From an uncultured Gemmatimonadales bacterium (GTDB lineage Bacteria; Gemmatimonadota; Gemmatimonadetes; Longimicrobiales; RSA9): 64,000 nucleotides of DNA. The notes beneath the pieces were generated by a model. That model was not told the origin of the DNA, did no database searches, and was given only the letters and a program-made list of their open reading frames with translations. Both the position numbers and the translations under genes were made by a program. Positions 13,810 through 61,978 of the stretch are shown piece by piece (position 1 is the stretch's first letter; each line of letters begins with the position of its first letter). The stretch spans positions 352,001-416,000 of the forward strand of contig CAWAMW010000007.1 in the NCBI GenBank assembly GCA_963783305.1, given 5' to 3'.

Positions 13810-14111
13810 GGGCGGGGAGCGAACGGTCGCTGCGCTCCCTGTCGATCGCTTCGGCCTGCGGCCTCGCTCGTCGATCTCCGCTGCGCTCCGTCTCTACTTC
13901 CACGTTTCGCCGCCACAGCCGGAAGGAAGAGCACACGCGCGTGCCCCGTCACAGCCGACGCCGCGCGCAGCGCGGTCGCCTCGCGCGAAGCGCGGGCGAT
14001 CGACCCCCCGCGCCCGCGGGGTCCTCGGGGAGCGAAGCGACCCCCGAGGATCGACCCCCGCGCCAGCGGGTCCCGAAGGGCGCGGAGCGACCGCAGGGAT
14101 CGACCCTCGAC
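13810..14111 (+). repeat. Modular intergenic repeat, copy A
   Basis: Shares the left end GGGCGGGGAGCGAAC..TCGCTG(C/T)GCTCCCTGTCGA and right end GCGGAGCGACCGCAGGGATCGACCCTCGAC with 44006-44177 and 61704-61978. Confidence 0.92.
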
Positions 14112-14220
14112 CCACCTCCCCTCGGCATTTCCAGCCGCGCGCACGCGGCCGCGCGCACGCGCAAGGCGGCAGCGCCCGCCGTGGAGGCCCGGCGTGAAGA
14201 CGGCGTCGCGACCCGGCCGA

Positions 14221-14529
14221 CTAGGGCGTCGTCTGCTCGGGCACGGGTCGCGGCGTTCCCGGGCCGTCGATGGCCGGGCGGGTGGCGACATCGAGCGTGG
14301 CCAGGACGATGAGGAGAATGACGAGGAGCACGGCGACCGAGGTGGCGATATGGGCGGGCGTGCGCTGGTCGAGGAGGTGCATGAAGAAGAGGGCGATGAG
14401 GATCGCCTTGGTGGCGGCGATGGTGATGGCGACCGGTACGCCCCAGCTGCCGAGCGGGGCGAACGAGAGGCCGAAGGTCAGGCCCGTGAGGGCGAGGAGC
14501 GCGGCGAAGGTCAGGACGTAGCTCTTCAC
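14221..14529 (-). CDS. ctaF: Cytochrome c oxidase subunit IV (caa3-type)
   Basis: 3 TM helices, IAATKAILIALFFMHL motif. GTG start after subunit III. Confidence 0.85.
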   Translation of the reverse strand: MKSYVLTFAALLALTGLTFGLSFAPLGSWGVPVAITIAATKAILIALFFMHLLDQRTPAHIATSVAVLLVILLIVLATLDVATRPAIDGPGTPRPVPEQTTP

Positions 14530-14537
14530 GGGTCCGG

Positions 14538-15245
14538 TCAGCGCATGAGGTAGAAGGCGGGCCAGACGAACAGCCAGACGATGTCGACGAAGTGCCAGTA
14601 CATGCCTCCGAGCTCGACGGGGGTGTGGTACGCGGCGTCGTAGTGGCGGCGCCAGCTCTGGACGGCGAGCCAGGACAGGATCACGATCCCGCCGGTAACG
14701 TGGACGGCGTGGAGCCCCGTGATGAGGTAGTAGAGGTTGAAGAACGCGCCCGCGCCCTGCTCCTGCAGCCCCTCGAAGTGGTAGTACCTGCCGGGCAGGA
14801 TCCCCTCCCGGATATGGCGCGCGTACTCCCAGAACTTGAGCACGAGGAAGACGACGCCGAGCCCGGCGCCTCCGGCGAGGAGCCCGGCCGTCGCCCGGGG
14901 CCGACCGTGTCGGGTGAAGTGGAGGGCGGTGGCGACGAGGAAGCTGGCGAGGAGCAGGACCACGGTCCCCGAGGAGCCCAGCCACAGGTTCGTATGGTGG
15001 GCGGCCTCCGCGAAGACCTCGGGGAAGGACGTGCGGTAGGAGGCGTAGAGGGCGAAGAGGGCGCCGAACATGAGGATCTCGCTGGCAATGAAGATCCACA
15101 TCCCGAAGTGGGCCGCGTGGGTCTGCCGGGTCATGTCCTCGAAGTGCTCCTCGAGGTGCGCGCCCGGCCCCTCCTCCGGCGCGCGGCGCACGCGGGCGGA
15201 GGCGGAGTGCAGGGTGTCGCCACCGGGAAGGCCGTCGCGGCTCAC
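14538..15245 (-). CDS. ctaE: Cytochrome c oxidase subunit III
   Basis: GMWIFIASEILMFGALF, TGLHAVHV and YWHFVDIVW. GTG overlaps the subunit I stop. Confidence 0.92.
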   Translation of the reverse strand: MSRDGLPGGDTLHSASARVRRAPEEGPGAHLEEHFEDMTRQTHAAHFGMWIFIASEILMFGALFALYASYRTSFPEVFAEAAHHTNLWLGSSGTVVLLLASFLVATALHFTRHGRPRATAGLLAGGAGLGVVFLVLKFWEYARHIREGILPGRYYHFEGLQEQGAGAFFNLYYLITGLHAVHVTGGIVILSWLAVQSWRRHYDAAYHTPVELGGMYWHFVDIVWLFVWPAFYLMR

Positions 15246-16876
15246 GCGTCCTCCTCCGCCCAGTAGTCGTGGGCCTCGCGGTTCCGGAAGTCGGGGGTGA
15301 TGGTGAAGTTGTGCGGTGGTGGCGGTGAGGGTGTGAGCCATTCGAAGCCGCGGGATCGCCACGGGTTGTCGCCGCTCACTGGCCCCTTCACGAGGGAGAC
15401 GATCAGGTAGCTCAGGATGAGCGACAGCCCGGCGGCGAAGGACCAGGAGCCCACGGTGGACACGGCGTGGAGGCTCTCGAACTCGGGGGGATAGTCGTGG
15501 AGCCGGCGCGGCATGCCGGCGTTGCCGAGGAGGAACTGGGGGATGAACGTGCCGAGGAACCCCATGAAGATGAACATTGCGCCGATCTTCCCGAGCGTCT
15601 CGTTGTAGAGCCGACCGAACATCTTCGGCCACCAGTAGTGGAGTGCGGCGAGGAAGGCGGTCATGGTGGCGCCCACCATGATGAAGTGGAAGTGCGCGAC
15701 GACGAAGTAGGTGTCGTGCCAGTGGACGTCGAGGGAAGTGGAGGCGAGCGCCACACCGGTGGTCCCGCCCACGCCGAAGAGGAAGAGGAACTCGAAGAAG
15801 TAGAGCATGGGTGTGTCCAGCGAGATGGACCCACCATAGAGCGTCCCTACCCACGAGAAGACCTTGATGGCGCTGAAGATGGAGACCCACATGGAGAGGA
15901 TCCCGAACGCGGCGCCGGCCGTGACGCTCATCCCTGACACGAACATGTGGTGGCCCCACGCCATGAAGCCGATGAACGCGATCCCGAGGGACGAGATCAC
16001 GAGGCCGCGGTACGTGTACGGGTTCTTCCGGCTGAAGGCGGAGACCACCTCGCTGATGACGCCCATCCCCGGCAGGATCATGATGTAGACGGCCGGGTGG
16101 GAGTAGAACCAGAAGAGGTGCTGGTAGATGAGCGGGTCGCCGCCGGTCCCGGGATCGAAGATGCCGAGCCCCCAGAGCTGATCCAGGACCACCAGCAGCA
16201 GGGTGATCCCGAGGACGGGCGTGGCCAGCGTCTGCATGATGGCGGTGGCGTAGATGGTCCAGACGAAGATCGGCAGCTTCCCCCACGTCAGGCCGCGGGC
16301 GCGCAGCGTGTGCGTGGTCACTACCAGGTTGATGCCGGTCATGATGGTGGACACGCCGAGCACGAAGACCCCGAGCCCCACCACCGCCACGTGGGAGAGC
16401 GTGTGGGTGGAGTAGGGGGTGTAGAACGTCCAGCCCGCGTCCACGCCGCCGGCCGCCAGACCGTAGAGGACGATGAAACCGCCGAGAAGGTAGACGTACC
16501 AGCTGGCCAGGTTGAGCCGCGGGAACGCGACATCCCGTGCGCCGATCATGAGCGGCACCATGAAGTTGCCGAACGTGGTCGGGATCGACGGAATCATGAA
16601 CAGCCATACCATGATGATCCCGTGGGCGGTGAAGAAGCGGTTGTACGTGCTCGCGCCCACGATGGTCTCGCCGGGGGTGAGCAGTTCCAGGCGGAGCAGG
16701 ATGGCGAAGGTGCCGCCGAGGGCGAGCATTGCGGCCGTGGAGATCAGGTAGAGGACGCCGATCCGCTTGTGGTCGGTGGTGGTGAGCCACGACCAGAGCG
16801 TCTTCTCGACGCCGAGGTACGACGGCCCGTGCGTCGTGGCCATCCGTGCGCCATGGCGGTCCACGGGCGTGCTCAT
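15242..16876 (-). CDS. ctaD: Heme-copper oxidase subunit I, type A2
   Basis: DHKRIG, TAHGIIM, DVAFPRLN, FWFYSHPAVY (YS motif of A2), WGHHMF and AHFH. Confidence 0.96.
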   Translation of the reverse strand: MSTPVDRHGARMATTHGPSYLGVEKTLWSWLTTTDHKRIGVLYLISTAAMLALGGTFAILLRLELLTPGETIVGASTYNRFFTAHGIIMVWLFMIPSIPTTFGNFMVPLMIGARDVAFPRLNLASWYVYLLGGFIVLYGLAAGGVDAGWTFYTPYSTHTLSHVAVVGLGVFVLGVSTIMTGINLVVTTHTLRARGLTWGKLPIFVWTIYATAIMQTLATPVLGITLLLVVLDQLWGLGIFDPGTGGDPLIYQHLFWFYSHPAVYIMILPGMGVISEVVSAFSRKNPYTYRGLVISSLGIAFIGFMAWGHHMFVSGMSVTAGAAFGILSMWVSIFSAIKVFSWVGTLYGGSISLDTPMLYFFEFLFLFGVGGTTGVALASTSLDVHWHDTYFVVAHFHFIMVGATMTAFLAALHYWWPKMFGRLYNETLGKIGAMFIFMGFLGTFIPQFLLGNAGMPRRLHDYPPEFESLHAVSTVGSWSFAAGLSLILSYLIVSLVKGPVSGDNPWRSRGFEWLTPSPPPPHNFTITPDFRNREAHDYWAEEDA

Positions 16877-17967
16877 GGCGTGCTCCGGAGGGAGCGGATG
16901 TACTCCACCAGCGCCGCGGCCTGCGCGGGCGTGAGCCTGCCCTGGAAACTGGGCATGATGGGATCGAACCCTTCGACGATCTTCCGCTGCGGATCCATCA
17001 TCGACTCCGTCAGATACGCGGGATCGGCCACCACGGTGTCTCCGCCGCTCAGCGGGACGCGGGCGCCGTAGAGTCCCAGCCAGGTCGGGGCCAGGTGTCG
17101 GCTGCCATCGGTGGTGTGGCAGCTGAAGCAGCCTTTTTCGGCCGCGATCGCCTGGCCGCGGCCAGGCAGCGTGAGGCGGTTGGGGCCCACCGCGGCCCCG
17201 GGCGCGATCACCCCCGGCTCGCCCGCGGAGGGCTCCTCCGCGATGTCGGGCGGGTACCCCTCGAGCCAGCGGTCAAACCGGTCGGCCGGAAGGACCACCA
17301 CCTCCGCCCACATGCGGCCATGTCCGTCGCCGCAGAACTCCGCGCACATGAGACGGTAGCGCCCCGTCTCGACGGGCTCGAACCAGATGGACGTGTAGCG
17401 GCCCGGTACCGCGTCCTGCTTGATCCGGAACGCGGGGATGAACAGCGAATGGATGACGTCCCGGGACGTGAGGATCAACCGCACCGGCCGGCCCACGGGC
17501 AGGTAGAGGGTGCCCACGGACTCCGGCCCGCCCGGATAGCTGAATTTCCACACCCACTGCCGTCCGACGGCGTAGATCTCGACGGCGTCGTCGGGCGGGT
17601 CATAGCGCTCGCGATACTGGGAGAACCCGATCATCCACCAGAGCATGAACATGCCCAGGAGCGCGAAGGCGATACCGAGCTCGAGCCACGCCGGCGCCCG
17701 GATCTCCCGCGTGCGCGGCGCCTCGCCGTCGGTGGAGCGGCGTCGGTAGCGGAGTACGAACCAGGCGCTGGCGCCGATCACCACGAAGCCGATGGCCCAG
17801 AAGACGACGAACTCGAAGTAGTGGAGCGAGTCCAGCGACCGCGCGTGGGCGGAGGCCTGGGGTGGGAGCAGAAGGAGCCTGTGGAGGAGGTTGCCCGCGG
17901 CCCCGAGGAAGTCGGAGAGCGCCGACGGGGGCTCGGCCAGCACGGCGGGGAGCGGGTGCACTGTCAT
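16873..17967 (-). CDS. ctaC: Cytochrome c oxidase subunit II with C-terminal cytochrome c (caa3-type)
   Basis: DVIHS, CuA motif CAEFCGDGHGRM, heme motif CFSCH and distal MP. ATG overlaps the actG stop. Confidence 0.94.
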   Translation of the reverse strand: MTVHPLPAVLAEPPSALSDFLGAAGNLLHRLLLLPPQASAHARSLDSLHYFEFVVFWAIGFVVIGASAWFVLRYRRRSTDGEAPRTREIRAPAWLELGIAFALLGMFMLWWMIGFSQYRERYDPPDDAVEIYAVGRQWVWKFSYPGGPESVGTLYLPVGRPVRLILTSRDVIHSLFIPAFRIKQDAVPGRYTSIWFEPVETGRYRLMCAEFCGDGHGRMWAEVVVLPADRFDRWLEGYPPDIAEEPSAGEPGVIAPGAAVGPNRLTLPGRGQAIAAEKGCFSCHTTDGSRHLAPTWLGLYGARVPLSGGDTVVADPAYLTESMMDPQRKIVEGFDPIMPSFQGRLTPAQAAALVEYIRSLRSTP

Positions 17968-18350
17968 GGCGCCGCCTGCGCACCACCGCTGCCCTCGGCG
18001 ATGAGCCGCATGGCCGCGGAGATGGGGATGCGCGCGAGCCCGCTGTCGATCTCCGACCACCCGTAGGCGTCGAGTGCCCGGCGACGGCGATCGCGGGCGG
18101 TCTCGGTGCTGGAGTCCTCCTCGATGAGCGTCGTGTTGAGCCGTCCGACTCGCGGCATGTCCCTCACCTCCTCGGTGCGCGGCGGCGTCCGGTCGGTGGA
18201 GAAGGCCGCTCCGGCGCCGCCCAGGACGGTGGCCCACCAGATCGCGGCCGCGGTGAGCAGGGCCACGACCGCGACGATGGCGCCGGCGCGCCGGCCGGGC
18301 ACGCGGTCCTCCTCCTGGAACAGGCCGGGGCGGCGCGGGGACTCACTCAC
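17964..18350 (-). CDS. actG: Alternative complex III small subunit, ActG-like
   Basis: Single TM, then LDAYGW...ARIPISAAMRLIA. Positioned after actF. Confidence 0.7.
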   Translation of the reverse strand: MSESPRRPGLFQEEDRVPGRRAGAIVAVVALLTAAAIWWATVLGGAGAAFSTDRTPPRTEEVRDMPRVGRLNTTLIEEDSSTETARDRRRRALDAYGWSEIDSGLARIPISAAMRLIAEGSGGAQAAP

Positions 18351-19557
18351 GGCGGTAGTCGATGGAGGTGGCGATGCGCGGGTCGCGCCAGGCGACCACG
18401 GAGTGGCCGGCCAGGCGCCACGCGCCGAACGCGACCGCGGGTGCGGTGACGAGGAGCAGCGCGGCGGGGTCGACCCAGTGGAGCTGGAGGTCCCGGCGGG
18501 CGAGGGCGGGGACCACGAGCCAGAACATGTCGATGTAGTGCATCAGCAGCATCCAGGCGGCGACGACGGCGAGGGATGGGCCCTGCTGCTTGAGTCGATA
18601 CGAGAGGAGCGCGGCGAACGGGAGCAGGAAGTGTCCGATCGCCAGGATGATGAGGACGACGCCCCAGCCGCCGCGGAGCCGGTCCAGGTACCAGCCCACC
18701 TCCCGGGGCAGGTCGGCGATGTAGATCAGGAATCCCTGGGAGAAGGCGATGTAGGCCCAGAAAATGGTGAACACGAGGAGGAGCCGCCCCAGGGCGTAGT
18801 AGTGGCCCTCGGCCACCTCGTCGCCGATGAGGTCGGCGCGCTGCGCACCCCATGTGAGGAGCGTGAGCGCGGCCAGGCCGCCGTACATCCCGCCCGAGAA
18901 CCAGTACACGCCGAAGATCGTGGACAGCCACGTGGGGTCGAGGGACATCAGCCAGTCGACGGCCGCGAAGGTCATGGTCACGCCCGCGGCGACGAGCCCC
19001 GGGCCGCTGAGCCGGACGGCGCGCGCGGCGGGGGCGGCGTCGGGGTCGCGGTCCTGCCGCAGCGACCATCGTCGCAGCGCCCACGCGAGGGCGGTCCAGA
19101 CGGCGAAATAGACGATCGCGCGGATGAGAAAGAACGGGACGTTCAGGTACGCCGCCTTGCGACCGATGGCCTCCAGCTCCGGCTCGGTGAACCCCACGAC
19201 CGGCGGCACCCACGGGTAAAGCCGCGCCATGCCCAGGAGCACGGGCAGGAGGAGGAGTGCGAAGAGCGGCAGGGTGGCGGCCACGGACTCGGCGAGGCGA
19301 CGGATCACGACGAACCAGCGGGCGTTGGTGGCGTGGGCGATCAGCACCATGAAGAGGGCGCCGAGGGCAATGGAGAGGCCGTACGCGTACGCGGCCAGGT
19401 AGCTGAAGAGGGCCCGCTCGGGCGCGACGATCAGGGCCAGCACGAAGACGAGGGCCGCCGCGGCGGTCACGATCAGCGCGGGGGCGATCACGCCGCGCGC
19501 GCGCCGCAGCACCCGCGGCTCCGCGGCGGGGCCGAGCTTCGAGCGCGACCGGCTCAC
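18343..19557 (-). CDS. actF: Alternative complex III membrane subunit ActF
   Basis: KAAYLNVPFFLIR, DWLMSLDPTWLSTIFG and FWAYIAFSQ, about 10 TM. Confidence 0.9.
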   Translation of the reverse strand: MSRSRSKLGPAAEPRVLRRARGVIAPALIVTAAAALVFVLALIVAPERALFSYLAAYAYGLSIALGALFMVLIAHATNARWFVVIRRLAESVAATLPLFALLLLPVLLGMARLYPWVPPVVGFTEPELEAIGRKAAYLNVPFFLIRAIVYFAVWTALAWALRRWSLRQDRDPDAAPAARAVRLSGPGLVAAGVTMTFAAVDWLMSLDPTWLSTIFGVYWFSGGMYGGLAALTLLTWGAQRADLIGDEVAEGHYYALGRLLLVFTIFWAYIAFSQGFLIYIADLPREVGWYLDRLRGGWGVVLIILAIGHFLLPFAALLSYRLKQQGPSLAVVAAWMLLMHYIDMFWLVVPALARRDLQLHWVDPAALLLVTAPAVAFGAWRLAGHSVVAWRDPRIATSIDYRRE

Positions 19558-20270
19558 GGGCCACCTCCGGGAACGGCGGCGCGGAACGCCCGACGGACGG
19601 AGTCGGGGAGCGCGTCGAGGTCGGCGCGCTGCGCGAGCTGGAGTGCCCGCACGTACGCGACGACCGCCCAGCGGTCGAGCACGTCGAGCTCCGCCGCGTA
19701 CGACGGCATGAGCCCGTACCCCTCCGTGATCGCGGCGAAGATGCGCCCGTCCGGGGCCTCCCGCAGCTCCTCTCGGAGCAGGGAGGGGGGCGGCCGAAGG
19801 GACATGTTCCCGGCGACCGGTGTGCGGGCCTGCCCGTCGATCCCGTGGCAGACGGCGCAGAAGATCCCGAAGCGGTCACGGCCGCGCTGGAGATCATCCA
19901 TGCCGAGTCGGAGCGGGATCCGCTGCACGAAGGGCGCGCGCTCGCGCCGCGGACCCGCGGGGCCGGCGGTGGCGGCGGGGACGAGCACGAAACTGTCCGG
20001 CCGCACGCGCCCCGTGAGCATGGCCGCATCACCGATCGCGGCGGCGCGGTGCACCGTGCCCGAAGGTGGGTGGCGCATGACCATGGAGTCGGGGAACAGC
20101 GCGGCGCCCTCGTACGCCCTGAACGACCGCTGGTCGATCATGCGTTCGAAGCTCCAGGTGACCGGCTGATCCTGCCAGTCGCACCCGGCGAGGAGGGCCG
20201 CGGCGGCGAGGGCCAGGAGCGCCGGCCGGGGTGCCGGAACGCGCCGGAAACGACGGGCGCGGGCGCTCAC
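19554..20270 (-). CDS. actE: Alternative complex III monoheme cytochrome c lipoprotein ActE
   Basis: Lipobox LLAGC, CAVCH and GYGLMPSYA. Confidence 0.9.
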   Translation of the reverse strand: MSARARRFRRVPAPRPALLALAAAALLAGCDWQDQPVTWSFERMIDQRSFRAYEGAALFPDSMVMRHPPSGTVHRAAAIGDAAMLTGRVRPDSFVLVPAATAGPAGPRRERAPFVQRIPLRLGMDDLQRGRDRFGIFCAVCHGIDGQARTPVAGNMSLRPPPSLLREELREAPDGRIFAAITEGYGLMPSYAAELDVLDRWAVVAYVRALQLAQRADLDALPDSVRRAFRAAVPGGGP

Positions 20271-20863
20271 GACTCCTCCGGCCGCAGGGGCACCACGGCA
20301 TCGTCGGCCCCGAGCCCGCCGGGGACGCGCTCCACGTGGAGCGCGCCGGCGCTCCTGAGGTCGCCGGCGGTGCGCTCGAACTCGAAGAGGGGGTCGCGCT
20401 CGTCGATGCCGAGGAAGAACGCGTCGTCGTTGACGCGATCAAAGCCGGGCACGTCGAAGAGCGGCTGCCAGAGCATGGGGAGGCGCGAGCCCACGATCAC
20501 GCCGAGGAAGGCGGCGATGGAGGCGAAGAGGATGGCGGTCTCGAACGTGATCATGACGTACGACGGGAACGGGTGCATCGGCCGTCCGCCCACATTGAGC
20601 GGGAAGTCGACGGTATTGGTCCACCACTGGATCCCGTAGCCAACGGCGGCGCCGAGCAGTCCCGCCAGGAGGGTGAAGAGCGGGATCCGTCCGCGGGGCA
20701 GCGCGAGGGCATCCTCGAGCCCCTCCACCTCCCAGGGGGCGAAGCCCTCCACCAGCGTGTAGCCGTGCCCACGCATTGCCGCCGCGGCGCTCTTCACCGC
20801 CTCGGCGGACTCGAACTCTGCGAGGACGCGGATCCTCATGACGTCCGGCGCCGAGCCCCTCAT
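20267..20863 (-). CDS. actD: Alternative complex III subunit ActD (DUF3341)
   Basis: VLAEFES, PLNVGGRP and ITFETAIL. ATGA overlap with the actC stop. Confidence 0.9.
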   Translation of the reverse strand: MRGSAPDVMRIRVLAEFESAEAVKSAAAAMRGHGYTLVEGFAPWEVEGLEDALALPRGRIPLFTLLAGLLGAAVGYGIQWWTNTVDFPLNVGGRPMHPFPSYVMITFETAILFASIAAFLGVIVGSRLPMLWQPLFDVPGFDRVNDDAFFLGIDERDPLFEFERTAGDLRSAGALHVERVPGGLGADDAVVPLRPEES

Positions 20864-43952: not shown

Positions 43953-44005
43953 GCCGCCCGGTTCCCAGCGATCGCTGGAGTCTGGCAGGTCGCTGAAGGC
44001 GCGGT

Positions 44006-44177
44006 GGGCGGGGAGCGAACCATCGCTGCGCTCCCTGTCGACCGCGTCGCTGCGCTTGCTGGTCGATCTCCCCCCGCGCCAGCGGGGTCCTCGGGGAGCG
44101 CAGCGACCCACGAGGATCGACCCCCGCGCCAGCGGGTCCCGAAGGGAGCGGAGCGACCGCAGGGATCGACCCTCGAC
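44006..44177 (+). repeat. Modular intergenic repeat, copy B (short)
   Basis: Same ends as copies A and C. Lacks the central cassettes. Confidence 0.92.
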
Positions 44178-47453: not shown

Positions 47454-47471
47454 GAAGCCCGCTGCGGCGGG

Positions 47472-53303: not shown

Positions 53304-53364
53304 TTCGTCGGCCCCCCCTTTGCATCCCGCGTCGGCTCGCCACCCACTCTTCGAACGGGACGTG

Positions 53365-54204
53365 ATGGAGTACGACTACCCTTCCTTCAGGCTGCCGCGG
53401 CTCCTGAATGATATTTCCTTCGAGTCGGGACCGTACCCCGGCGAAGCCTTCCCGGATTTCGACCTTCCCACCACGAAGGGGGGTCGGATTACGCGAGATC
53501 AGCTCATCGAGCGGGGGCCGGCGCTGATCACCATGGGGTCGTTCACCTGTCCCATGACGGCGAGCGCCGGGCCCACGCTGCGAGGGCTCCACACCGAGTT
53601 CGGTCATCCCATCACCTTCATGACGCTGTACGTCCGCGAGGCGCACCCGGGCCGGGAATACCCTCAGGCCGCGTCGCTGGACCAGAAAATCCGGTACGCC
53701 CGGGCCTACAAGAAGCGGGACGGGATCCCGTGGACGGTCGCCGTGGACGATGTTACGGGGACGCTGCACCGGCAGCTGGACGCGAAGCCGAACTCCGCCT
53801 ACATCGTCGGGCACGATGGCATCGTGCTCTACCGGACGCTCTGGTCGGGCCACGAGTGGACGCTGCGCCAGGGGCTCGCGGTGGTAGCGGCCGGCGGGCG
53901 CCCGATGGAGCAGCGCGAGCCGAGGCTCATGCCCATGGCGGCGGGACTCGGCGAGCTGTACCGGATGCTGGAGCTGGCGGGGGAGGGCGCCAAACGCGAC
54001 GTCCTATACCGTGCCCCGCCCATGTACGTTCTGGCCCGGCTGGCCCACCTGCTCCCGTTCGCCGGGCCCATGCGCCGGGGGATCGGCGCCATGGGCGTGA
54101 TGTTCGGCCTGGGACTCGGGGGCGCCGTGGCGGCTGCGCGCTCGCATGGTCGGTCCAGGGCGGAGAAGGGGAGCTCCAGGGAGCGGCGGCGCCCGACCGA
54201 ATGA
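53365..54204 (+). CDS. Iodothyronine deiodinase-like thioredoxin-fold protein (Cys form)
   Basis: PDFDL, GSFTCP, LYVREAHPG and PNSAYIV. C-terminal TM. Confidence 0.82.
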   Translation: MEYDYPSFRLPRLLNDISFESGPYPGEAFPDFDLPTTKGGRITRDQLIERGPALITMGSFTCPMTASAGPTLRGLHTEFGHPITFMTLYVREAHPGREYPQAASLDQKIRYARAYKKRDGIPWTVAVDDVTGTLHRQLDAKPNSAYIVGHDGIVLYRTLWSGHEWTLRQGLAVVAAGGRPMEQREPRLMPMAAGLGELYRMLELAGEGAKRDVLYRAPPMYVLARLAHLLPFAGPMRRGIGAMGVMFGLGLGGAVAAARSHGRSRAEKGSSRERRRPTE

Positions 54205-54238
54205 GCGGGGCCGCCATCCGGCCTCGGACCGAAGTGCG

Positions 54239-54973
54239 TCAGGCGGGTTGATCGAAGCGGGGCGGCTCCGCCAGCAGCGCGCTCAGGTCCGCCCCTGCCT
54301 CCACCGCCTCCGGCTCCCGCCCCCTGCGTAAGAGGAGAGCGCCGGTCGTGCCGTGCAGCTCCAGTTCCTCCCCGCGTCGACGTAGCCAGCTGCCCTCTCT
54401 CATTCCGAGCACCGGCACGTCGTTCTCCTCGAGGAACTCCCTGATCCGCTGCTCCCGTGTCTCGCCCATGTGGGTCGAGCCGGTGGGCGGGTCCTGATAG
54501 TGCGGATTGATCTGGAACGGGATGAGCTCGAACGAGCGCAGCCCGTCGGGCTCCACGATGGGCATATCGTTGGTGGTGCGGATCGTCGGGCAAGCGTGGT
54601 TGGTGCCGGCACTCGACCCCATGTACGACAGCGATCCCGCCCCAACCCTCTCCCGCACCGGATCGATGAGGCGGAGCCGCTGAAGGGAGCGGAGCAGCCG
54701 GAAGCTGTTGCCACCCCCCACGAACAGGACCTCCGCTTCCATCAGCTCCGCGCGGGCGTCCTCCGCGCTGTGAAGCCCCACCACGCGGACACCGAGCGGG
54801 GCGAGCGCTTCGGCCACGCGGTGGGTGTAGGAGTCGTGGTCGGCGATCGCGAAGGGCGCGAAGTGCACGGTTCGGCGCCCTGCCAGGAACCGTTCGATGG
54901 CGTCCATGGCGTGCTCGAGGAAGGCGCGGCCGTGAAGGGTCGAGTTGCTGAGGAGGAGCAGGTCGTCGCGCAT
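54239..54973 (-). CDS. pepE: Dipeptidase E (S51)
   Basis: LLLSNST, VGGGNSF, GSSAG, TTNDMP, QINPHY and GETREQR. Confidence 0.94.
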   Translation of the reverse strand: MRDDLLLLSNSTLHGRAFLEHAMDAIERFLAGRRTVHFAPFAIADHDSYTHRVAEALAPLGVRVVGLHSAEDARAELMEAEVLFVGGGNSFRLLRSLQRLRLIDPVRERVGAGSLSYMGSSAGTNHACPTIRTTNDMPIVEPDGLRSFELIPFQINPHYQDPPTGSTHMGETREQRIREFLEENDVPVLGMREGSWLRRRGEELELHGTTGALLLRRGREPEAVEAGADLSALLAEPPRFDQPA

Positions 54974-54977
54974 CGCG

Positions 54978-55733
54978 TCACCTCTTCCGGTCGATTTCGC
55001 CGAGCCGCGCCTTGAGCTCATTCCTGGCGGCGGCTATCGCGCTGCGGGTACGCTCGCGGAGGGCGGGCACGTCATCCACGGTCATGCCTTTCGTCTCGAT
55101 GGGTTCCAGCACCCTGGCGATGGCCCGGGCGTAGCCGAACCGGAGCGAGTGCTTGGCCATGGCCTCCCGCGTTCCCGCCACCGCGATGGGGAGGATGGGC
55201 AGCTGCCGTTCGACGGCGATCCGGAACGCGCCGTTGCGGAAGGGCAGCAGCTCTCCGTCGGGCGACCGGGTGCCTTCGGGCAGGATCATGACGGACACGC
55301 GCTTGTCCAGACGGTCGTGGATCTGCTGGACAGCCATCTCGCGACTGCCTTTTTCGCCGCGGCGAATGGCGATGTCGCCAGCCATCCGCATCATCCAGCC
55401 CATGACAGGGATACGGAATATGGCCTCCTTGGAGAGCCACTTCATCTCCCACGGGAGGTGGCTGAGGAGGAAGATATCGGCAAAGGACTCGTGGTTGGCC
55501 ACGGCCACGTACGGCCGTCGCGGATCGGTGATCTCTACACCCTCGGTGCTGAAGTGCCAGACCGGGATGAGCTTCACCGAGGCCATGGCGGCGCGCCGGA
55601 ACCAGCGCCCGGCGGTGTAGCGCCCGGGGTCGAACGGCGCGGTGAGAAGGAAAATGATGGCGAGCATGGGCAGCCAGAGCAGGGCCAGGAGTCCGATCGC
55701 GGACCAGAGGAGGCCGGAGAGGAAGGTCCGCAT
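54978..55733 (-). CDS. plsC: 1-acyl-sn-glycerol-3-phosphate acyltransferase
   Basis: NHESFAD, PEGTRS and F.NGAF. Confidence 0.9.
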   Translation of the reverse strand: MRTFLSGLLWSAIGLLALLWLPMLAIIFLLTAPFDPGRYTAGRWFRRAAMASVKLIPVWHFSTEGVEITDPRRPYVAVANHESFADIFLLSHLPWEMKWLSKEAIFRIPVMGWMMRMAGDIAIRRGEKGSREMAVQQIHDRLDKRVSVMILPEGTRSPDGELLPFRNGAFRIAVERQLPILPIAVAGTREAMAKHSLRFGYARAIARVLEPIETKGMTVDDVPALRERTRSAIAAARNELKARLGEIDRKR

Positions 55734-57610
55734 CAGTGTTGCTCTCCGTCCCGGTCCTGCCCGTGCCGGAGGTTCCGCACCTCCTCCTTCACGTGGTCGA
55801 TCTCCGCGTAGAGCTTCTCGATGGCCTCGGTGAAGGCCTGCTCGATGGCACGTCGTCGCGCCTTCAGGGTGGGCGTGAGCAGCCCGGACTCCACGGTGAA
55901 CTCGTGCGGCAGGAGCGAGAAGCGCCGGGGAGTCTCGTGGCGGGCGAAGTCGCTCACCCGGTCCACGGTCTCATCGTGGAGCAGCTCGAGGAGCCGCGGG
56001 TGACGGGTCGCCGCGTCGCGGTCGCTCAGGTCGAGCCCGCGCTCGCTCGCCCAACGGTCCACGGCCTCCCAGTCCGGGACCACCAGCAGGGCGGGGAAGG
56101 CGCGGCGGTCCCCGACCATGATGGCCTGGGAGACGTACGGCGAGCGCATGATCTCAGATTCGACCGGCTGCGGGGCAATGTTCTTCCCGCCCGCCGTCAC
56201 GATGAGGTCCTTGAGCCGATCGGTGATGCGGAGGAAGCCATCCTCGTCGAAGCGCCCCACGTCGCCCGTGTGGAACCAGCCGCCGTCCTCCATCACCTCG
56301 GCCGTGGCCTCGTCGTCGTTCCAGTAGCCGCGCATGGTGCCGGGCCCGCGGCTCATGATCTCGCCATTCTCCGCGATCCGGATCTCCACGTCGGGGTATG
56401 GAACCCCCACGGAGCCGAGACGGGTCGCGCCCGGTCGGTTGGCGGACAGGACGGGCGAGGTCTCCGTGAGGCCATACCCCTCGTAGATGGGGAGTCCTGC
56501 CGCGAAGAAGAACGTGCCGACGTCCGCGGAAAGCGGCGCGCCGCCGGAGATGAAGCCACGCATGCGGCCGCCGGTGCGGCGCCGGAGGGTGGCGAACACG
56601 ATGCGGTCGGCGGCGCCGAGGCGCACACGATCCCCCAGCTTGAGCCGCTCCCCCGCGTCCCTCCGGATCTGGGCCCGGGCACCGACCGCGCCCGCCCAGC
56701 GTCCCAGACGCCCCCGGAGACCCGGCGCGTCCACCACGCGGGCGTGCAGCTTCTCGAACAGCCGCGGCACGGACACCATCACGTGCGGTCGGATGGCCAG
56801 CAGGTCCTCCGCGAGCGTGTCGACCGAGCGGGCGTAGCCGATGGTCACACCCTCGTCGAAGAAGAAGTAGGACGCGGCCCGCTCGAACACGTGCGACAGC
56901 GGGAGGATCGAGAGGCACATATCGCCGGCGCCGGCCGGTACCGAGCCGTGTTGCCGCGTAGCCGCCACCATGAAGGCCATGTTGCCATGCGTGAGGACCA
57001 CGCCCTTCGGCGGGCCCGTGGTCCCCGAGCTGTATACCAGGGTAGCAGCGTCCTCCGGCTGCACGGCCTCCGCCCGCTCACGCAGCCCCTCGACAGGCGG
57101 GTGTTGGCGCGCTTCGTCGAACGCGATCTCGACCCCCGCTCCCGTCCCGGCGGCGGGATCAAACACCGTGATCCACTCCAGCGCCTCGAGTCCCGCGCGG
57201 CGAGCCTTCTCCGCCTGCGCGGGCGTGGAGACGGCAAGGCCCCGCACACCCGCGTCCCTCAGGATATGCGCCACCTGGTCCGTGGGCAGCGTCGGGTAGA
57301 CCGGGACGGTGGTTGCGCCCAGGCAGAGGGCCGCGTAGTCGACGATCGCCCACTCCGGTCGGTTCTCCGACAGGATCCCGACCCGGTCTCCCGAGCCGAT
57401 GCCCCGCGCCTCGAGCCAGCCGGCCACGGCGGCCACCTGAGCGGCGACCTCGCGGTACGAGAGATCCCGCCACTGCTCGTGCTCACACCAGCGGAGCGCG
57501 GGGGCGTCGCCGAACCGGTCGACCGCGCCAAAGAACGTGGCGGTGAGGGTGCGCCGGTCGTACGGCGCGAGCGGGGGACCCGCGTGTGTCTCCCCGGATT
57601 CCGGCGGCAT
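55733..57610 (-). CDS. fadD: Long-chain fatty acid-CoA ligase
   Basis: YSSGTTGPPKG, LPLSHVFE, YEGYGLTE, WFHTGD, GGKNIAP and LTPTLK. Start at MPPES after a GGGAG RBS. Confidence 0.92.
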   Translation of the reverse strand: MPPESGETHAGPPLAPYDRRTLTATFFGAVDRFGDAPALRWCEHEQWRDLSYREVAAQVAAVAGWLEARGIGSGDRVGILSENRPEWAIVDYAALCLGATTVPVYPTLPTDQVAHILRDAGVRGLAVSTPAQAEKARRAGLEALEWITVFDPAAGTGAGVEIAFDEARQHPPVEGLRERAEAVQPEDAATLVYSSGTTGPPKGVVLTHGNMAFMVAATRQHGSVPAGAGDMCLSILPLSHVFERAASYFFFDEGVTIGYARSVDTLAEDLLAIRPHVMVSVPRLFEKLHARVVDAPGLRGRLGRWAGAVGARAQIRRDAGERLKLGDRVRLGAADRIVFATLRRRTGGRMRGFISGGAPLSADVGTFFFAAGLPIYEGYGLTETSPVLSANRPGATRLGSVGVPYPDVEIRIAENGEIMSRGPGTMRGYWNDDEATAEVMEDGGWFHTGDVGRFDEDGFLRITDRLKDLIVTAGGKNIAPQPVESEIMRSPYVSQAIMVGDRRAFPALLVVPDWEAVDRWASERGLDLSDRDAATRHPRLLELLHDETVDRVSDFARHETPRRFSLLPHEFTVESGLLTPTLKARRRAIEQAFTEAIEKLYAEIDHVKEEVRNLRHGQDRDGEQH

Positions 57611-57622
57611 GTGCTTCTCCCG

Positions 57623-57677
57623 ATGAACGCTCATGAGGTCTCTGGCCTTACAGTACGGGCGCGCCGGGGAGCGTCAA
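57623..57677 (-). promoter_or_regulatory. Putative sigma70 promoter (TTGACG-N16-TACTGT) followed by palindromic operator ATGAGCGTTCAT
   Basis: -35 at 57672-57677, -10 at 57650-57655, operator at 57623-57634 abutting the RBS. Confidence 0.6.
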
Positions 57678-57727
57678 GCCCTGACCGGGGAGCGTCAAGC
57701 CTGACCGGGGAGCGTCAAGCCCTGACC
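57664..57727. repeat. Tandem repeat, 3 x 20-21 bp CCGGGGAGCGTCAAGCC(C)TGA
   Basis: Units at 57664-57684, 57685-57704 and 57705-57725. Confidence 0.95.
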
Positions 57728-57769
57728 CTTCCCGCGCGGGTGAGGCGCATCGGGCGCAGCGCCGCCGGC

Positions 57770-58780
57770 CTAGAAGACGTCGATTTGCGGGCTCAGAGCG
57801 CTGGGATCCTCACGTATCTCCTGGATCAGCGCCTGGAGGTCGACGATCGTCTTGAGCAGCTCGTCATAGAGCTGCGGGTCGTCGAGGAGCCGTGCCATGG
57901 TACCGTCGCCTCCAGCGACCGCGCCGAGCAAGCCTTCCACGCCGGACAGAGTGGTATCCGCGCGCCCTACCACGCCGACCATGCCCTCGTAGAGCGCATC
58001 ATCGCGGACGAGCTTGCCGAGCGACCCCTCGCCCTCCAGCACGGCCGCACCCAGGCTGTCGAGCCGCGCCAGCGTGCTGTTCATCCGGTTGTACAGCTCC
58101 GGGTCGCGGATCACGCGGCCCAGCGTGCCATCGGAGCGGTTCACGGTCCTCAGGAGTGCGGCCATCTCGCCGGTGGCGGTGGTCATTTGCTGGTAGAGCG
58201 CCTCGTCCGTAAGGAGCGCCCCCAGGGTCCCCTCGCCGCCGGCCAGCCGGTGGGTGAGGACACGAAGGTCGACCACGACGTCCTGCACGTGGTCGAGGGT
58301 GGTGGCCGCGGTGCGGAGCACGGCCTCGTAGTCGAGGACGCCAATGCTCTCCAGCGTATCGCCGGGCTGGAGCGGGGGATAGGCCGGGGAGCCGGGGGAG
58401 ATGTTGAGGAACCGATCGCCGAGCAGCCCCTGTGTCTGGAGGGCCCCGCGGGAGTCCTTCCTGATCTGGGGCTGCACGCTCTCGTTGATGGAGAAGTGGA
58501 CCACGATGTTGACGCTGTCCGTGCGAGTCTCCACGGGTAGAAATTCGATGGACTGGATCTGTCCGATCCTCTGACCGGCCAGGGTGACGGGAGATCCGGG
58601 GATGAGGCCGCCCGAGCTCTCCACAAGCGTGACCAGGGTATAGCGAGAGGCGAATACATCGAAGAGCCGCCCCACCTGAAACACTCCGAAGGCCAGGACG
58701 AGGATTCCCACGATGAGGACAACTCCGACGCGGATCTGTCGCGCCGTCTGCTGACCCTGGTTGAGCTTGCCGCGTGCCAT
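57770..58780 (-). CDS. mlaD: MlaD/MCE family protein with long helical region
   Basis: N-terminal TM, GL.PGSPVTLAG..IG and GLLGDRFLNISPG. Confidence 0.92.
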   Translation of the reverse strand: MARGKLNQGQQTARQIRVGVVLIVGILVLAFGVFQVGRLFDVFASRYTLVTLVESSGGLIPGSPVTLAGQRIGQIQSIEFLPVETRTDSVNIVVHFSINESVQPQIRKDSRGALQTQGLLGDRFLNISPGSPAYPPLQPGDTLESIGVLDYEAVLRTAATTLDHVQDVVVDLRVLTHRLAGGEGTLGALLTDEALYQQMTTATGEMAALLRTVNRSDGTLGRVIRDPELYNRMNSTLARLDSLGAAVLEGEGSLGKLVRDDALYEGMVGVVGRADTTLSGVEGLLGAVAGGDGTMARLLDDPQLYDELLKTIVDLQALIQEIREDPSALSPQIDVF

Positions 58781-58797
58781 CGTCGTCTATCTCCTGC

Positions 58798-59661
58798 TCA
58801 GCTGAGCGCCAGGAAGCGCTGGATGTAGTCGTCGTCCTGCGCGATCATCTCCTCCGGCGTCCCGTCGAACGCGATCTCCCCGTTCCTCAGGAGGTTCACC
58901 CGGGAAGCGACCCGGAACCCGGCCCGCAGGTCGTGCGTCACGACGATGGAGGTCACGCCGCGCTCCCTCTGCAGTTTCCGTGTCAGGTCCCCGATGGTCC
59001 CGATGGTGAGCGGGTCGAGACCGGCCGTGGGCTCGTCGTAGAGCACGATCTGCGGGTCCGTGGCGATGGCCCGGGCCAGCCCGACCCGTTTCTTCTGCCC
59101 GCCCGAGAGCTCACCCGGCAGCTGCGGACCGACCTTGTCGGGGTCGAGATCGACGAACGTCAGTCTCTGACGCACCACCTCGGCGATCTCGTCCTCCGAC
59201 ATGCGGGTGTTCTCCCGGAGCGGGTACGCGATGTTGTCGAAGACGTTCACCGAGTCGAAGAGCGCCGCGTTCTGGAACACCATCCCGATCTTCTGTCGGA
59301 GCTCGAGCGCCTCCTGGAAGGTAAGCTGCGTGATCTCGCGCCCGAAGACGCAGATGTCGCCGCTGTCCGGGAGCAGGAGTCGGAGGATCAGCTTGAGGAT
59401 CGTGGACTTTCCCGTGCCCGACTCGCCCAGGACGAGAAGCGTTTCCCCCTCCTTCACCCGCAGGTCGACCCCGGACAGGATCGGGTGGTCGAACGAGAGG
59501 TGGACGTTCTCGAGCTCGATGACCGGCTCTCCGGTCTCCACCGGCTCCGCGCCCTCGTCGCCGCTCCGGATCTCGTCGCGGATCACCTTCCGCAGCACCT
59601 CGCCCGCGCCCGCGTCGCGCCGATCGTCGCCCTCGCGCCGCCCTTCCACGCTCTCCCTCAT
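58798..59661 (-). CDS. mlaF: MlaF-type ABC transporter ATPase
   Basis: GESGTGKS, GMVFQNAALFDS, LSGGQKKRVGLAR and YDEPTAGLDP. Confidence 0.92.
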   Translation of the reverse strand: MRESVEGRREGDDRRDAGAGEVLRKVIRDEIRSGDEGAEPVETGEPVIELENVHLSFDHPILSGVDLRVKEGETLLVLGESGTGKSTILKLILRLLLPDSGDICVFGREITQLTFQEALELRQKIGMVFQNAALFDSVNVFDNIAYPLRENTRMSEDEIAEVVRQRLTFVDLDPDKVGPQLPGELSGGQKKRVGLARAIATDPQIVLYDEPTAGLDPLTIGTIGDLTRKLQRERGVTSIVVTHDLRAGFRVASRVNLLRNGEIAFDGTPEEMIAQDDDYIQRFLALS

Positions 59662-60482
59662 CCGCCCGCCGGGAGCAGGACCATCAGGAGCTGCGTGATG
59701 AAGTAGTCCACCACGAGCACCAGGATCGAACCCGTGACGACGGCCCGCGTTGTGGCCGTCCCGACCCCTTCCGTCCCGCCCCGCGCCGCCAGACCATAAT
59801 GGCAGCCCGTCATGGCTACAATGCCCCCGAATACGAACGGCTTCAGGAGCCCGCCCACGAAGTCACGGGGGAAGACGTCGAAGATGAAGCCCGACTGCGC
59901 CAGGATGCTCCACACGCCCCGCAGATAGGCGTCCGCCGGCACCTGGATCTTGAACACCGAGACCAGGAGCCCGCCGAAGATGCCCACGGCATCCGTCATG
60001 ATCGTCAGCAGGGGAAGCATAATGAGACCCGCCAGGAGGCGCGGCGTCACCAGCTTCTTGATGGGGTCCGTACCGAAGCTCTGGAGCGCGTCGATCTGCT
60101 CGGTAACCCGCATGGCGCCGATCTCCGCCGCGATCCCCGAGCCCACGCGGCCGGCGAAGATCAGGGCGGCCAGGACCGGACCCAGCTCCCGCACCATCGA
60201 GGCTCCCACCAGGCTCCCAACGTAAATGTCCGCCCCGAACCGCTCGAGCGCCACCGCGCTCTGCAGCGCCAGGACCATCCCGGTGAACAGGCCGGTGAGG
60301 AGGAGGATAGGCACCGATCCCACGCCCATCCGGTCCATGTGCGTGAGAGTATCCCTCCAGTAGAACGGGCGTGCGACCACGAACCGCGTGGCGCGGGTCC
60401 CCAGCGTGAAGAACTGATACACACCGAGGGCCGTTCCACGCAGCCAATCGTCCACCCTGGCCACGATGCCCGTCATCCCCAC
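59658..60482 (-). CDS. mlaE: MlaE-type ABC transporter permease
   Basis: RELGPVL, GRVGSGIAAEIGAMRVTEQIDA and GVGTATT. Alternative ATG at 60476. Confidence 0.94.
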   Translation of the reverse strand: MGMTGIVARVDDWLRGTALGVYQFFTLGTRATRFVVARPFYWRDTLTHMDRMGVGSVPILLLTGLFTGMVLALQSAVALERFGADIYVGSLVGASMVRELGPVLAALIFAGRVGSGIAAEIGAMRVTEQIDALQSFGTDPIKKLVTPRLLAGLIMLPLLTIMTDAVGIFGGLLVSVFKIQVPADAYLRGVWSILAQSGFIFDVFPRDFVGGLLKPFVFGGIVAMTGCHYGLAARGGTEGVGTATTRAVVTGSILVLVVDYFITQLLMVLLPAGG

Positions 60483-60610
60483 GTCTTTCGGTCGATTCTC
60501 TGGCTACTTTCGCTTTACAGTGCAGGAACACTCCGGTAGCTTGCAGCGACCCGGAACGTCGGGTAGGCCTGAATCAATTTCCGTGCCCACGACCGCCGAA
60601 CCACGCCGAC

Positions 60611-61606
60611 ATGGATCGTCTGGAACTCAGCCGAGCGAACGAACTTCTCGGTAGCATCGGGGGCGTGCGGATCCTGGTGGTAGGCGACCTGATGCTCGAC
60701 GTATACCTGCGTGGGGGCGCGTCACGAATCTCTCCGGAGGCCCCGGTGCCGGTGGTGCGGGTGCGGGACGAGTGGCGTGCGCTGGGTGGTGCGGCGAACG
60801 TGGCGGCGAACCTGGTGGCTCTTGGTGCGAAGACGCGGCTCGTGGGCGGGGTCGGGGACGACGGGGCGGCCGTGGACTTCCGGTCCGCTGCGAGCGGCGC
60901 GGGGATCGACGTGGCCGACCTGGTGGTACTGCCGGGCCGGCCGACCACGCTGAAGACGCGGGTCCTGGTGGGCCATCAGCAGGTCGCCCGGTACGATCGG
61001 GAGGTCGACGCCGATGTGGGGGGCGTGGATGCCGCCGCACTGGCCGAGCGGGTGGAGGCCGCCGCTCGGGAGGCGGACGCGGTGGTGCTGGAGGACTACG
61101 ACAAGGGCGTGCTGGTCCCGGTGGTGATCGATGCGGCGCTGGACGTCGCCCGGCAGCGGCGCATCCCGGTGGTCGTGGATCCGAAGGCGCGCCATTTCTT
61201 CCAGTACCGCGGGTGTACGGTGTTCAAGCCCAACGAGCCGGAACTGGCTGCGGCGCTCCGGGCCGAGCTTCGGCCCGACGACGCTGGCTGGATGGACGAG
61301 ACCCGCCGTCACATGGAGTGCGATGCCCTCCTCCTCACGCTCGGCGCCGAGGGTATGGCCCTCTGCACCGGGCCCCACGATCTGCTCCGTGTCCCGGCGG
61401 TAGCCCGCGCCGTCTACGACGTCTCCGGCGCCGGTGATACCGTGACCGCCGTGATCGCCGCCGTCCTCGCCGTCGGCGGTACGCCGGAGGAGGGGGCGAT
61501 CCTCGCCACGCACGCCGCCGGCGTGGAGGTGGGGAAGGCCGGCGTGGTCACGGTCGGCTCCGAGGAGATCCTCGAGAGCCTCCGCCATCACCGGAACGAG
61601 GTCTAG
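60611..61606 (+). CDS. rfaE1: D-glycero-beta-D-manno-heptose-7-phosphate kinase (stand-alone RfaE/HldE kinase domain)
   Basis: GDLMLD, RISPEAPVPV, GGAANVA, DYDKG, VDPK and DVSGAGDT. Confidence 0.92.
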   Translation: MDRLELSRANELLGSIGGVRILVVGDLMLDVYLRGGASRISPEAPVPVVRVRDEWRALGGAANVAANLVALGAKTRLVGGVGDDGAAVDFRSAASGAGIDVADLVVLPGRPTTLKTRVLVGHQQVARYDREVDADVGGVDAAALAERVEAAAREADAVVLEDYDKGVLVPVVIDAALDVARQRRIPVVVDPKARHFFQYRGCTVFKPNEPELAAALRAELRPDDAGWMDETRRHMECDALLLTLGAEGMALCTGPHDLLRVPAVARAVYDVSGAGDTVTAVIAAVLAVGGTPEEGAILATHAAGVEVGKAGVVTVGSEEILESLRHHRNEV

Positions 61607-61703
61607 CGACGTCGAACATCGTGCTGTGCAGCGAACAGGGAGCCATGCATCGACTACGGCTGCGGCCGCCCGGGCAGGCGGCTGAAGACGTCAGGGGTCG
61701 ACG

Positions 61704-61978
61704 GTCGAGGGTCGATCCCTGCGGTCGCTCCGCTCGCCGCGGACCCCGCTGGCGCGGGGGGTCGATCGCCCGCGCCTGCGCGCGAGGCGACCGCGCTGCG
61801 CGCAGCGTCGACGGGACGGGGCACGCGCGTGCCCTTCCCGCTGCGCCTGTCGGCGGGGATACCGGAGCAAGACGGAGCGCAGCGGAGATCGACCAGCGAG
61901 GCCGGAGGCCCAAGCGGTCGACCAGCGAGGGCAGCGACGCGGTCGACAGGGAGCACAGCGACCGTTCGCTCCCCGCCC
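61704..61978 (-). repeat. Modular intergenic repeat, copy C (inverted)
   Basis: Its reverse complement has the same ends and cassettes as copies A and B. Confidence 0.92.

Follow-up and report, generated by a model that had tools for sequence, protein, structure and literature searches.

Introduction

MITEPsy1 of Pseudomonas syringae, as portrayed in the sections of PMC3189936 drawn upon here, is a non-coding and dispersed element which shares its ends with an IS5-family element and carries CTAG at these ends. The BrickBuilt MITE of Porphyromonas gingivalis (PMC4596501, in part) places IS5-type ends round internal tandem repeats, its length follows the repeat number and many of its copies are without one or both ends. 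In the 23S rRNA intervening sequences (IVS) with an S23p/IVP ORF, a PF05635 gene lies between inverted arms, and these genes sit within stems that are excised by RNase III; PF05635 has no known function (PMC4990558) and is not known to be catalytically active. The family member XCC0516 is a pentamer of solved structure (PDB 2gsc). The REP/BIME/REPIN-RAYT systems, in the parts of PMC2817692 and PMC3733652 considered, pair a single small gene with hairpin repeats in inverted orientation on either side of it; each paralogue has a dispersed family of its own, the tips read GCG-NA-GC, and there is a bias towards 3'-ends and convergent genes.

The repeat family described here was noticed in a 64,000-nt stretch of DNA (the window) of a Gemmatimonadota genome (label G000), and it resembles the two MITEs in the features listed above. 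With the IVS its parent cassettes share the PF05635 gene between inverted arms, and with the REP/BIME/REPIN-RAYT systems they and their dispersed families share the features given. Unlike MITEPsy1 as described in those sections, the repeat family is the longer of the two, at up to ~390 nt, and is an old, decayed one; its partner transposase was not found in the genome and its interior is apparently a captured two-arm hairpin array. Where the BrickBuilt account reports one 23-nt unit, the present family has a pair of arms in opposite orientation, made of diverged hairpin units and traceable to the arms flanking a specific gene family. The parent cassettes differ from the IVS of that source in lying outside rRNA, between operon protein genes, with arms that are word arrays or hairpin-spaced words and that appear to spawn dispersed gene-less families. 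In contrast to the REP/REPIN-RAYT systems of the parts considered, the flanked gene encodes a four-helix bundle and not an HUH nuclease, and the units are TCGA-linked with no GTAG/CGTC tag at the palindrome foot (compared with the text of section 6 of PMC3733652). The literature look-ups made here gave neither a hairpin-spaced TCGA form nor an IS5-ended composite.

We consider it likely that the family is a decayed composite of IS5-type ends around a gene-less two-armed hairpin array like the arms of PF05635 cassettes, probably a MITE served in trans by an IS5-family transposase at CTAG. Judging by sequence comparison, the preliminary description missed two layers, the IS5-type mobile shell and the derivation of the units from four-helix-bundle cassette arms.

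Results and discussion

Genome-wide BLAST yielded 56 loci, 55 of them distinct, a copy number far above chance, and an nhmmer profile search of the genome added zero loci to this set. The three copies first reported in the window are real in their coordinates, strands, lengths (302, 172 and 275 nt for copies A, B and C), unit sizes and common 36-nt left end, and the BLASTN check bore out their membership of a multi-copy family. That family is, as had been proposed, non-autonomous, modular, dispersed and intergenic with no cognate transposase nearby; the core spans 31–307 nt across the 55 loci and holds no transposase coding capacity. The unit spans given for each copy stand, but the element reaches further, to decayed terminal inverted repeats (Table 1). 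Copies A and B each occupy a gap between convergent genes, the arrangement originally noted for two copies, and copy C is placed between the tandem genes rfaE and ridA, ~65 nt from the rfaE stop. The present stop of the ctaA-like gene falls within the left end of copy A.

Table 1 Positions of element parts in the window and of the gene reaching into copy A
Feature	Position	Strand	Description
ctaA-like gene	12829–13797		Present stop is the TAG within the left end of copy A
Copy A left end	13791–13806	+	Decayed CTAG 4-mer and IS5-type inverted repeat, 3 mismatches
Copy A left arm (L, b)	13810–13874	+	Short TCGA-linked hairpin units
Copy A centre c1	13875–13958	+	Variable sequence
Copy A right arm (c2, d, e, CCCTCGA)	13959–14111	+	Match to four-helix cassette arms, G000:C11:29.6–30.3 kb
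Copy A right end	14130–14145	-	Heavily decayed, 6 mismatches, marginal
Copy B left end	43982–43997	+	1 mismatch, CTAG to CTGG
Copy B interior (L, a, 4-nt stub, d, e, CCCTCGA)	44006–44177	+	~152-nt internal deletion
Copy B right end			Looked for, not found
Copy C left end	61988–62003	-	4 mismatches
Copy C interior (L, a, b, c1, c2, d/e chimera, CCCTCGA)	61704–61978	-	In the rfaE-ridA spacer
Copy C right end	61671–61686	+	3 mismatches

The units measure 25 nt (a), 29 nt (b), ~51 nt (d) and 49 nt (e). Unit c has the 129 nt ascribed to it in copy A, but it is not a single unit, being mostly divided by an internal TCGA into c1 (~81) and c2 (~45); likewise the cassette order read for copy C is correct save that its supposed e is a d/e chimera with the crossover inside the unit. 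The two arms are built from different unit types, the left from short hairpin units with GNA loops on the bottom strand and the right from long double-hairpin units with GNA loops on the top strand. This polarity, counted over 17 copies (left arm 4 top and 51 bottom, right arm 69 top and 7 bottom), is the same as in the four-helix cassettes. Triloops of the form GNA and G-N-N-A tetraloops make up the loops, GNRA accounting for just 13 of 69, the linkers between units vary among TCGAAT, TCGAAC and TCGACC, and the variable centre c1 keeps 59–67 nt between its anchors. The whole element folds mildly better than shuffled sequences (z -1.51 as DNA; z -2.05 as RNA, for copy A).

The putative mobile shell

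The outer ends, CTAG followed by CAGGYYGCTGAA, are decayed terminal inverted repeats flanking the units and are common to 1.30-kb IS5-family insertion sequences of relatives, which encode NF033581 IS5 transposases at 240–268 bits against a cut-off of 140 bits. With up to 3 mismatches allowed, the 16-mer was present at the left of 16 of the 55 loci, at the right of 12 and on both sides of 8, as compared to 0.13% of random windows. On this evidence the shared outer ends make most copies a decayed MITE. Among 73 family genomes the ends or left arm were matched in G000 alone. No IS5 transposase was found in G000 or in 6 congeners; searches of the own genome for DUF772, DDE_Tnp_1, NF033551 and NF033581 gave no match, and tblastn of two IS5 transposases against G000 gave a best E of 0.18.

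CTAG or its decayed forms occupy the ends. Genes facing the sites end in CTAG at 16 of 37 end-bearing and 10 of 42 end-less sites; for the other four-helix families the count is 4 of 49 sites, and over the whole genome 252 of 3676 genes (7%) end this way. Stop codons constitute 8 of the 9 intact CTAG ends. The genome is CTAG-poor and 234 of its 724 CTAG sites, about a third, are stops, which offers a simple reason for copies following stop codons. A Vsr-type process is a possible explanation for the decay of CTAG. The 11 copies with two ends include none in which CTAG survives on both sides, and an empty allele within the species was not seen, so that a target duplication is putative. Decay looks greater in the ends (15% and 24%) than in the arms (1–9%). 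Family loci fill 9 of the 13 pairs of facing ends, the other 4 pairs (0.6–2.2 kb) look like chance and no short empty shell was seen, which, like the restriction of ends or left arm to G000, speaks for a single capture.

The putative hairpin cargo

The interior of the family matches inverted arms around genes for four-helix-bundle proteins (PF05635, '23S rRNA IVP'). The right arm scored 118 (z 34) and 73 against the two arms of the C11 cassette at metH and 60–107, best arm, against five orthologues of this cassette, and at most 32 against the remaining 31 of 37 loci. The left arm gave a weak match (best 40–45) to a second cassette, C16, at which an intact four-helix gene persists (C16:294038–294415, minus strand). 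The parent cassettes hold a PF05635 ORF between their arms and the window copies are gene-less; derivation of the centre from a four-helix gene or its flanks was unsupported, with a flank match of 30 against a null maximum of 32. TCGA arrays were present in 13 of 15 clade matches, and the clade cassettes of relatives have TCGA either as arrays of plain hexamers or as words set apart by hairpins of ~45 nt with GNA loops, both forms occurring at the same locus; it follows that the TCGA linker is a conserved word. The six four-helix genes of G000 each have their own dispersed gene-less family of 9–32 loci, and two-arm forms devoid of ends occur dispersed in the genomes G005, G002, G432, G449, G450 and G000 (#4, 15, 28, 29).

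Proposed origin and alternatives

The composite could have arisen from the four-helix genes of one clade, which carry inverted TCGA-word arrays as plain hexamers or with ~45-nt GNA-loop double-hairpin spacing. Loss of the gene would have given the gene-less forms, two-armed and short-centred, that are seen dispersed in at least six genomes. In the G000 lineage IS5 ends may have closed around one such form on a single occasion, after which it would have multiplied at CTAG sites, often stop codons in this CTAG-poor genome. The transposase would then have been lost, slippage and deletions at microhomology between paralogous units wearing down the copies and CTAG decaying except where it served as a stop. 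Kept between the hairpins across relatives, TCGA is probably a protein-binding word and not a cutting site, putatively read by the four-helix pentamer when shown single-stranded between extruded DNA mini-hairpins.

A different course of events, in which the four-helix system and not IS5 moved most copies and the IS5 ends were passengers captured once, draws upon the dispersal of end-less forms in the six genomes named above, the better conservation of arms than of ends, and the survival of a four-helix gene where no IS5 transposase was found. We regard it as unlikely, since the enrichment of CTAG stops is specific to end-bearing loci (16/37 vs 4/49) and catalysis is not known for PF05635 (PMC4990558). 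Mobilization of a REP/BIME family by a RAYT (HUH) transposase, the link suggested by the preliminary description, is hinted at by the second hairpin of the long units, a REP-like stem with an internal loop and a GCG-NA-GC tip (compare Table 1 of PMC2817692), and by two Y1_Tnp genes in G000. It did not survive the HUH check and is highly improbable, as the repeat does not flank either Y1 gene, all 5 congeners searched carry Y1 genes whether the family is present or not, and the gene that the arms do flank is PF05635. IS200/IS605-like guide pairing of TCGA with GAAT was dropped as well because the linker varies and the flanked gene does not encode an HUH protein.

The family could also be read as a host-maintained structured RNA, acting as a terminator or stabilising mRNA 3' ends, or else as a stem of the IVS type that RNase III would process. 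In keeping with this are its place between convergent genes (28 of 55 loci, compared with 187 of 1803 among the other spacers), the RNA fold of copy A and the residence of PF05635 genes in RNase III-excised stems. This reading is improbable: Rfam gave no match at gathering scores in the window and none up to E=1 around copy A; GNRA is scarce among the loops, and the GNA-type class forms stable structures in DNA but far less stable ones in RNA (PMC13037366); the two arms are of different unit types and copies are freely deleted. Excision and insertion of cassettes at TCGA by a dedicated recombination system would suit the TCGA-delimited units and the 12 of 38 deletion junctions that are TCGA-compatible, when 0.4% of random deletions are. 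Yet 26 of 38 junctions lie elsewhere, that of copy B being 4 nt beyond a TCGA, and since only 12 fit and all of these fall within longer homology between paralogous units, TCGA is not a dedicated exchange site. The d/e chimeras (#7, 42, 47) cross over inside units, unit order is not permuted across end-bearing copies and a recombinase gene with copies on its flanks was not found. The census largely refutes this system, which we hold to have very little chance of being correct; of the role first given to TCGA, the conserved linker stands and gain or loss at TCGA as a rule does not.

The likely composite leaves room for a wider and more doubtful conjecture, that four-helix IVP proteins may be the word-reading factors of an undescribed, REP/RAYT-like selfish class acting on ssDNA, with an own word and gene-less family per paralogue. 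TCGA(A/C/T)N would be held fixed while the spacers went from two bases to 45-nt GNA mini-hairpins reuniting the words, and one such element would have been hijacked and amplified by an IS5 shell. If so, one mobile system carries another. The MITE shell is ordinary and the four-helix cargo would be the useful part: the plain and hairpin-spaced TCGA series, together with six paralogues with private families, puts forward a candidate ligand, points to single-stranded DNA and would supply ready natural substrate pairs for a binding test of PF05635 proteins.

Orthologous sites in relatives

The search for empty orthologous sites succeeded for one copy of three. The query for site A was not found in 6 congeners, site B was not syntenic in 5, and three DNA contig sets with small shares gave neither a piece spanning copy A nor a joint that skips it. 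At the site of copy C the element is absent from the orthologous spacer of relatives: the rfaE-ridA spacer is 442 nt here against 20–111 nt in 5 congeners, and is short by eye in a sixth.

Copies of the repeat in the window and in the genome

The three copies in the window were confirmed on the sequence with the positions and unit sizes of the preliminary description, and BLASTN of the 4.35-Mb Gemmatimonadota genome (G000) returned 56 merged loci, placing the family far beyond three copies. Fifty-five are distinct, because the numbered loci #27 and #49 are identical, flanks included, their segment having been either duplicated or assembled twice. A profile built from 22 copies gave 63 matches in G000 and no new locus. 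When copy A was searched in 41 genomes, multi-copy matches were confined to G000 (25) and the congeners G002 and G005 (17 each, mostly to the right half), with 1–4 weak matches in each of ten others. A structured RNA family had been considered; the repeat is without any match in Rfam.

Coordinates of the repeat copies and associated features (window positions for copies A to C; genome:contig otherwise)
Feature	Location	Strand	Remark
Copy A	13810-14111	+	
Copy B	44006-44177	+	
Copy C	61704-61978	-	
Identical copy, first	G000:C2:934109-934329		
Identical copy, second	G000:C3:2205-2425		
Four-helix gene	G000:C11:29.8-30.1 kb		5'-truncated
Four-helix gene	G000:C16:294.0-294.4 kb		Intact
Further four-helix gene	G000:C15:137.2-138.0 kb		
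Further four-helix gene	G000:C2:93.5-94.2 kb		
Further four-helix gene	G000:C12:103.8-104.5 kb		
Further four-helix gene	G000:C7:128.5-129.2 kb		
RAYT-like Y1_Tnp gene	G000:C2:249181-250191		Open frame, 336 aa
RAYT-like Y1_Tnp gene	G000:C6:65577-66638		Open frame, 353 aa
L095, metH locus	G005:C103:2000-7900		

An IS5-type shell with a probable CTAG target

The repeat is probably a dead IS5-type MITE. The preliminary description overlooked an outer inverted repeat in the flanks. With up to three mismatches, 16 of the 55 loci have the 16-mer CTAGCAGGYYGCTGAA on their left, 12 on their right and 8 on both (random-window background 0.13%); with up to four, the counts are 19, 16 and 11 (background 1.6%). 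Of 401 genomes searched in the phylum, 32 have the exact 16-mer and 10 its reversed control. In three genomes such ends bound elements of 1297–1308 nt whose ORF scores 240–268 bits on NF033581 (IS5 family; cut-off 140 bits) and also matches DUF772 and DDE_Tnp_1. In other genomes they enclose MITEs of 58–357 nt with unrelated interiors. A search for NF033581 found it in 10 of the family's 73 genomes, the seven genomes of the genus giving no match; of 17 loci returned, 10 were examined and 7 had ends like those of the G000 repeat. G000 gave no match to DUF772 or DDE_Tnp_1 or, by tblastn, to an IS5 transposase, and no short empty IS5 shell was seen. Known parallels are MITEPsy1, likewise IS5-derived and duplicating CTAG at its target (PMC3189936), and BrickBuilt, likewise with IS5-type ends around an internal repeat region, a minisatellite (PMC4596501). 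A separate, younger MITE family of 283–357 nt (loci L051, L062-L069, L052 and L053 in G327, G015, G293 and G389) has the same IS5 ends, intact CTAG and a hairpin-rich interior of another kind, and is found across genera.

We infer that CTAG was duplicated on insertion. This word is strongly depleted in G000 (724 sites, 0.17 per kb, versus 7.3 per kb for TCGA), and by our own codon-based calls of 3676 genes stop codons fall at 234 of these sites. A gene stop lies exactly within the outer 4-mer at 10 of 35 recognisable ends, and stops make up 8 of the 9 ends at which CTAG is intact. The remaining 4-mers have decayed, to CTGG or CCAG for example, and CTAG is kept at both ends in none of 11 two-ended copies. 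CTAG-ending genes face 16 of 37 end-bearing sites. The corresponding figures are 10 of 42 for the family's end-less sites and 4 of 49 for other four-helix families, and 252 of the 3676 genes as a whole end in CTAG. Convergent genes flank 28 of the 55 loci versus 187 of 1803 other spacers. The rfaE-ridA spacer holding copy C spans 442 nt in G000 versus 20–111 nt in five congeners, measured to the match start; a sixth, judged by eye, is short. At six ends (both of #23, and #41, 42, 46 and 51) the decayed 4-mer has a TAG stop 4–5 nt outside it, in most cases as part of CTAG, possibly a footprint of repeated insertion.

Cargo related to four-helix cassettes

Units of the long double-hairpin types d and e form arrays without IS5 ends in G002 and G005 (ends present within three mismatches at 0 of 28 arrays, within four at 2). 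At one G005 locus such arrays flank, on either side, a four-helix-bundle gene (PF05635) whose neighbours are metH and a homocysteine methyltransferase/MTHFR gene. The G000 orthologue, on C11, has family loci #31 and #32 on either side. Across 37 four-helix loci compared, the MITE right arm scored 118 (z 34) and 73 with the C11 cassette arms, 60–107 with the best arm of five orthologues, and at most 32 with the other 31. The C16 gene has inverted short TCGATAG units as arms, which score 52–86 with ten end-less loci; descent of the MITE left arm from a C16-type arm is suggestive, not firm, because left arms match these units only at 44–45. The MITE centre had no match in the cassette flanks. GNA/GNNA loops face outward in cassettes and MITE alike, with 4 top and 51 bottom in MITE left arms and 69 and 7 in right arms (17 copies, mutually non-independent). 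G005, G002, G432, G449, G450 and G000 also contain two-arm forms that lack the gene and the IS5 ends and have a short centre. Among the 73 family genomes the composite (ends or left arm) was found only in G000, nine candidates being scored per genome. In one orthologous spacer, between an SNF transporter and a gene that we take to be glyS-like, G000 has a four-helix gene with arms, G002 hairpin arms and G001 hexamer arms without the gene, G004 a different insert, G006 nothing, and G005 one arm before the contig ends.

At L095, hairpin arrays lie in frame at two places within the metH coding sequence, adding low-complexity peptide. At L166 (G001) and L136 (G006), the same methyltransferase gene is immediately preceded by a four-helix gene from another subclade, accompanied by different repeats; the site appears to be reused.

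Loss of units and spread of copies

Gain and loss of cassettes at TCGA, proposed previously, is not the rule. A junction script on 33 copies gave 63 junctions, 19 of them TCGA-compatible and partly artefacts of truncated copies; restriction to the 23 copies having both outer regions left 39 rows, one of which (#19, L>a) was dropped for aligning flank, with 12 compatible and 26 incompatible. One further compatible loss, at #10, was missed by the script and found by eye. TCGA falls in 0.4% of random deletions but in 20% of those with at least 6 nt of microhomology. Compatible losses are of four kinds, all within homology between paralogous units. Of the other junctions some show internal microhomology and others no microhomology, and d/e chimeras (copy C, for example) are among them. 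Slippage or recombination between paralogous units explains this pattern, and no TCGA-specific enzyme is needed.

A four-helix-linked or conversion-based process may have contributed to the spread of the MITE copies, since decay appears greater in the ends, at 15% and 24% for the inner 12-mers with lost ends counted, than in the arms (1–9% in aligned blocks), and since end-less forms have spread in other genomes. Both RAYT-like genes of G000 have a common 5' motif around TTCCATATTCCA and ACCGGTTTC, without a tie to the present repeat.

Hairpin units and the four-helix genes

Linkers in 120 distinct long units, taken from six genomes, mostly read TCGACC/G in G000, TCGAAC in G002 and TCGAAT in the other four genomes. 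First loops are G..A in 82 of the 120; G-N-N-A tetraloops number 69, of which only 13 are GNRA. GCGNAGC and GCGNNAGC mini-hairpins are very stable in DNA and far less so in RNA (PMC13037366). The stems of the long units differ in sequence yet remain paired. The loop class points to single-stranded DNA but is not proof, because the filter used to pick units favoured G..A-type loops and template switching can perfect hairpins without selection.

The six closest four-helix genes form a clade (99/99). A search across the family gave 15 matches in 11 of 73 genomes; the arms of seven have TCGA words with hairpin spacing, those of six are plain TCGA hexamer or heptamer arrays, and those of two lack a TCGA word. 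Hairpin-spaced and plain arrays both occur at the metH locus across genomes (metH outside G005 being identified by eye from 3' sequence). In G000, the six four-helix genes each have a dispersed intergenic family of their own, of 32, 10, 16, 16, 14 and 9 loci, with overlaps of 1 and 4. PF05635 has no known activity (PMC4990558); among solved structures the closest is the XCC0516 pentamer (2gsc, E 5e-5). The MITE cargo links the repeat to this poorly described cassette class and supplies a testable candidate ligand for the protein family. A literature search, with most subscription journals outside it, found nothing relevant on a link between four-helix genes and repeats or on the present MITE.

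The four further four-helix genes of G000 have inverted arms, of GNA-hairpin units of about 20 nt in two and simple 7-8-mers in two, and 9–16 gene-less dispersed copies each. By eye, a motif resembling G(A/T)CCCATCCGGC(C/T)AT recurs ahead of the start codon of many four-helix genes, a possible promoter or binding site.
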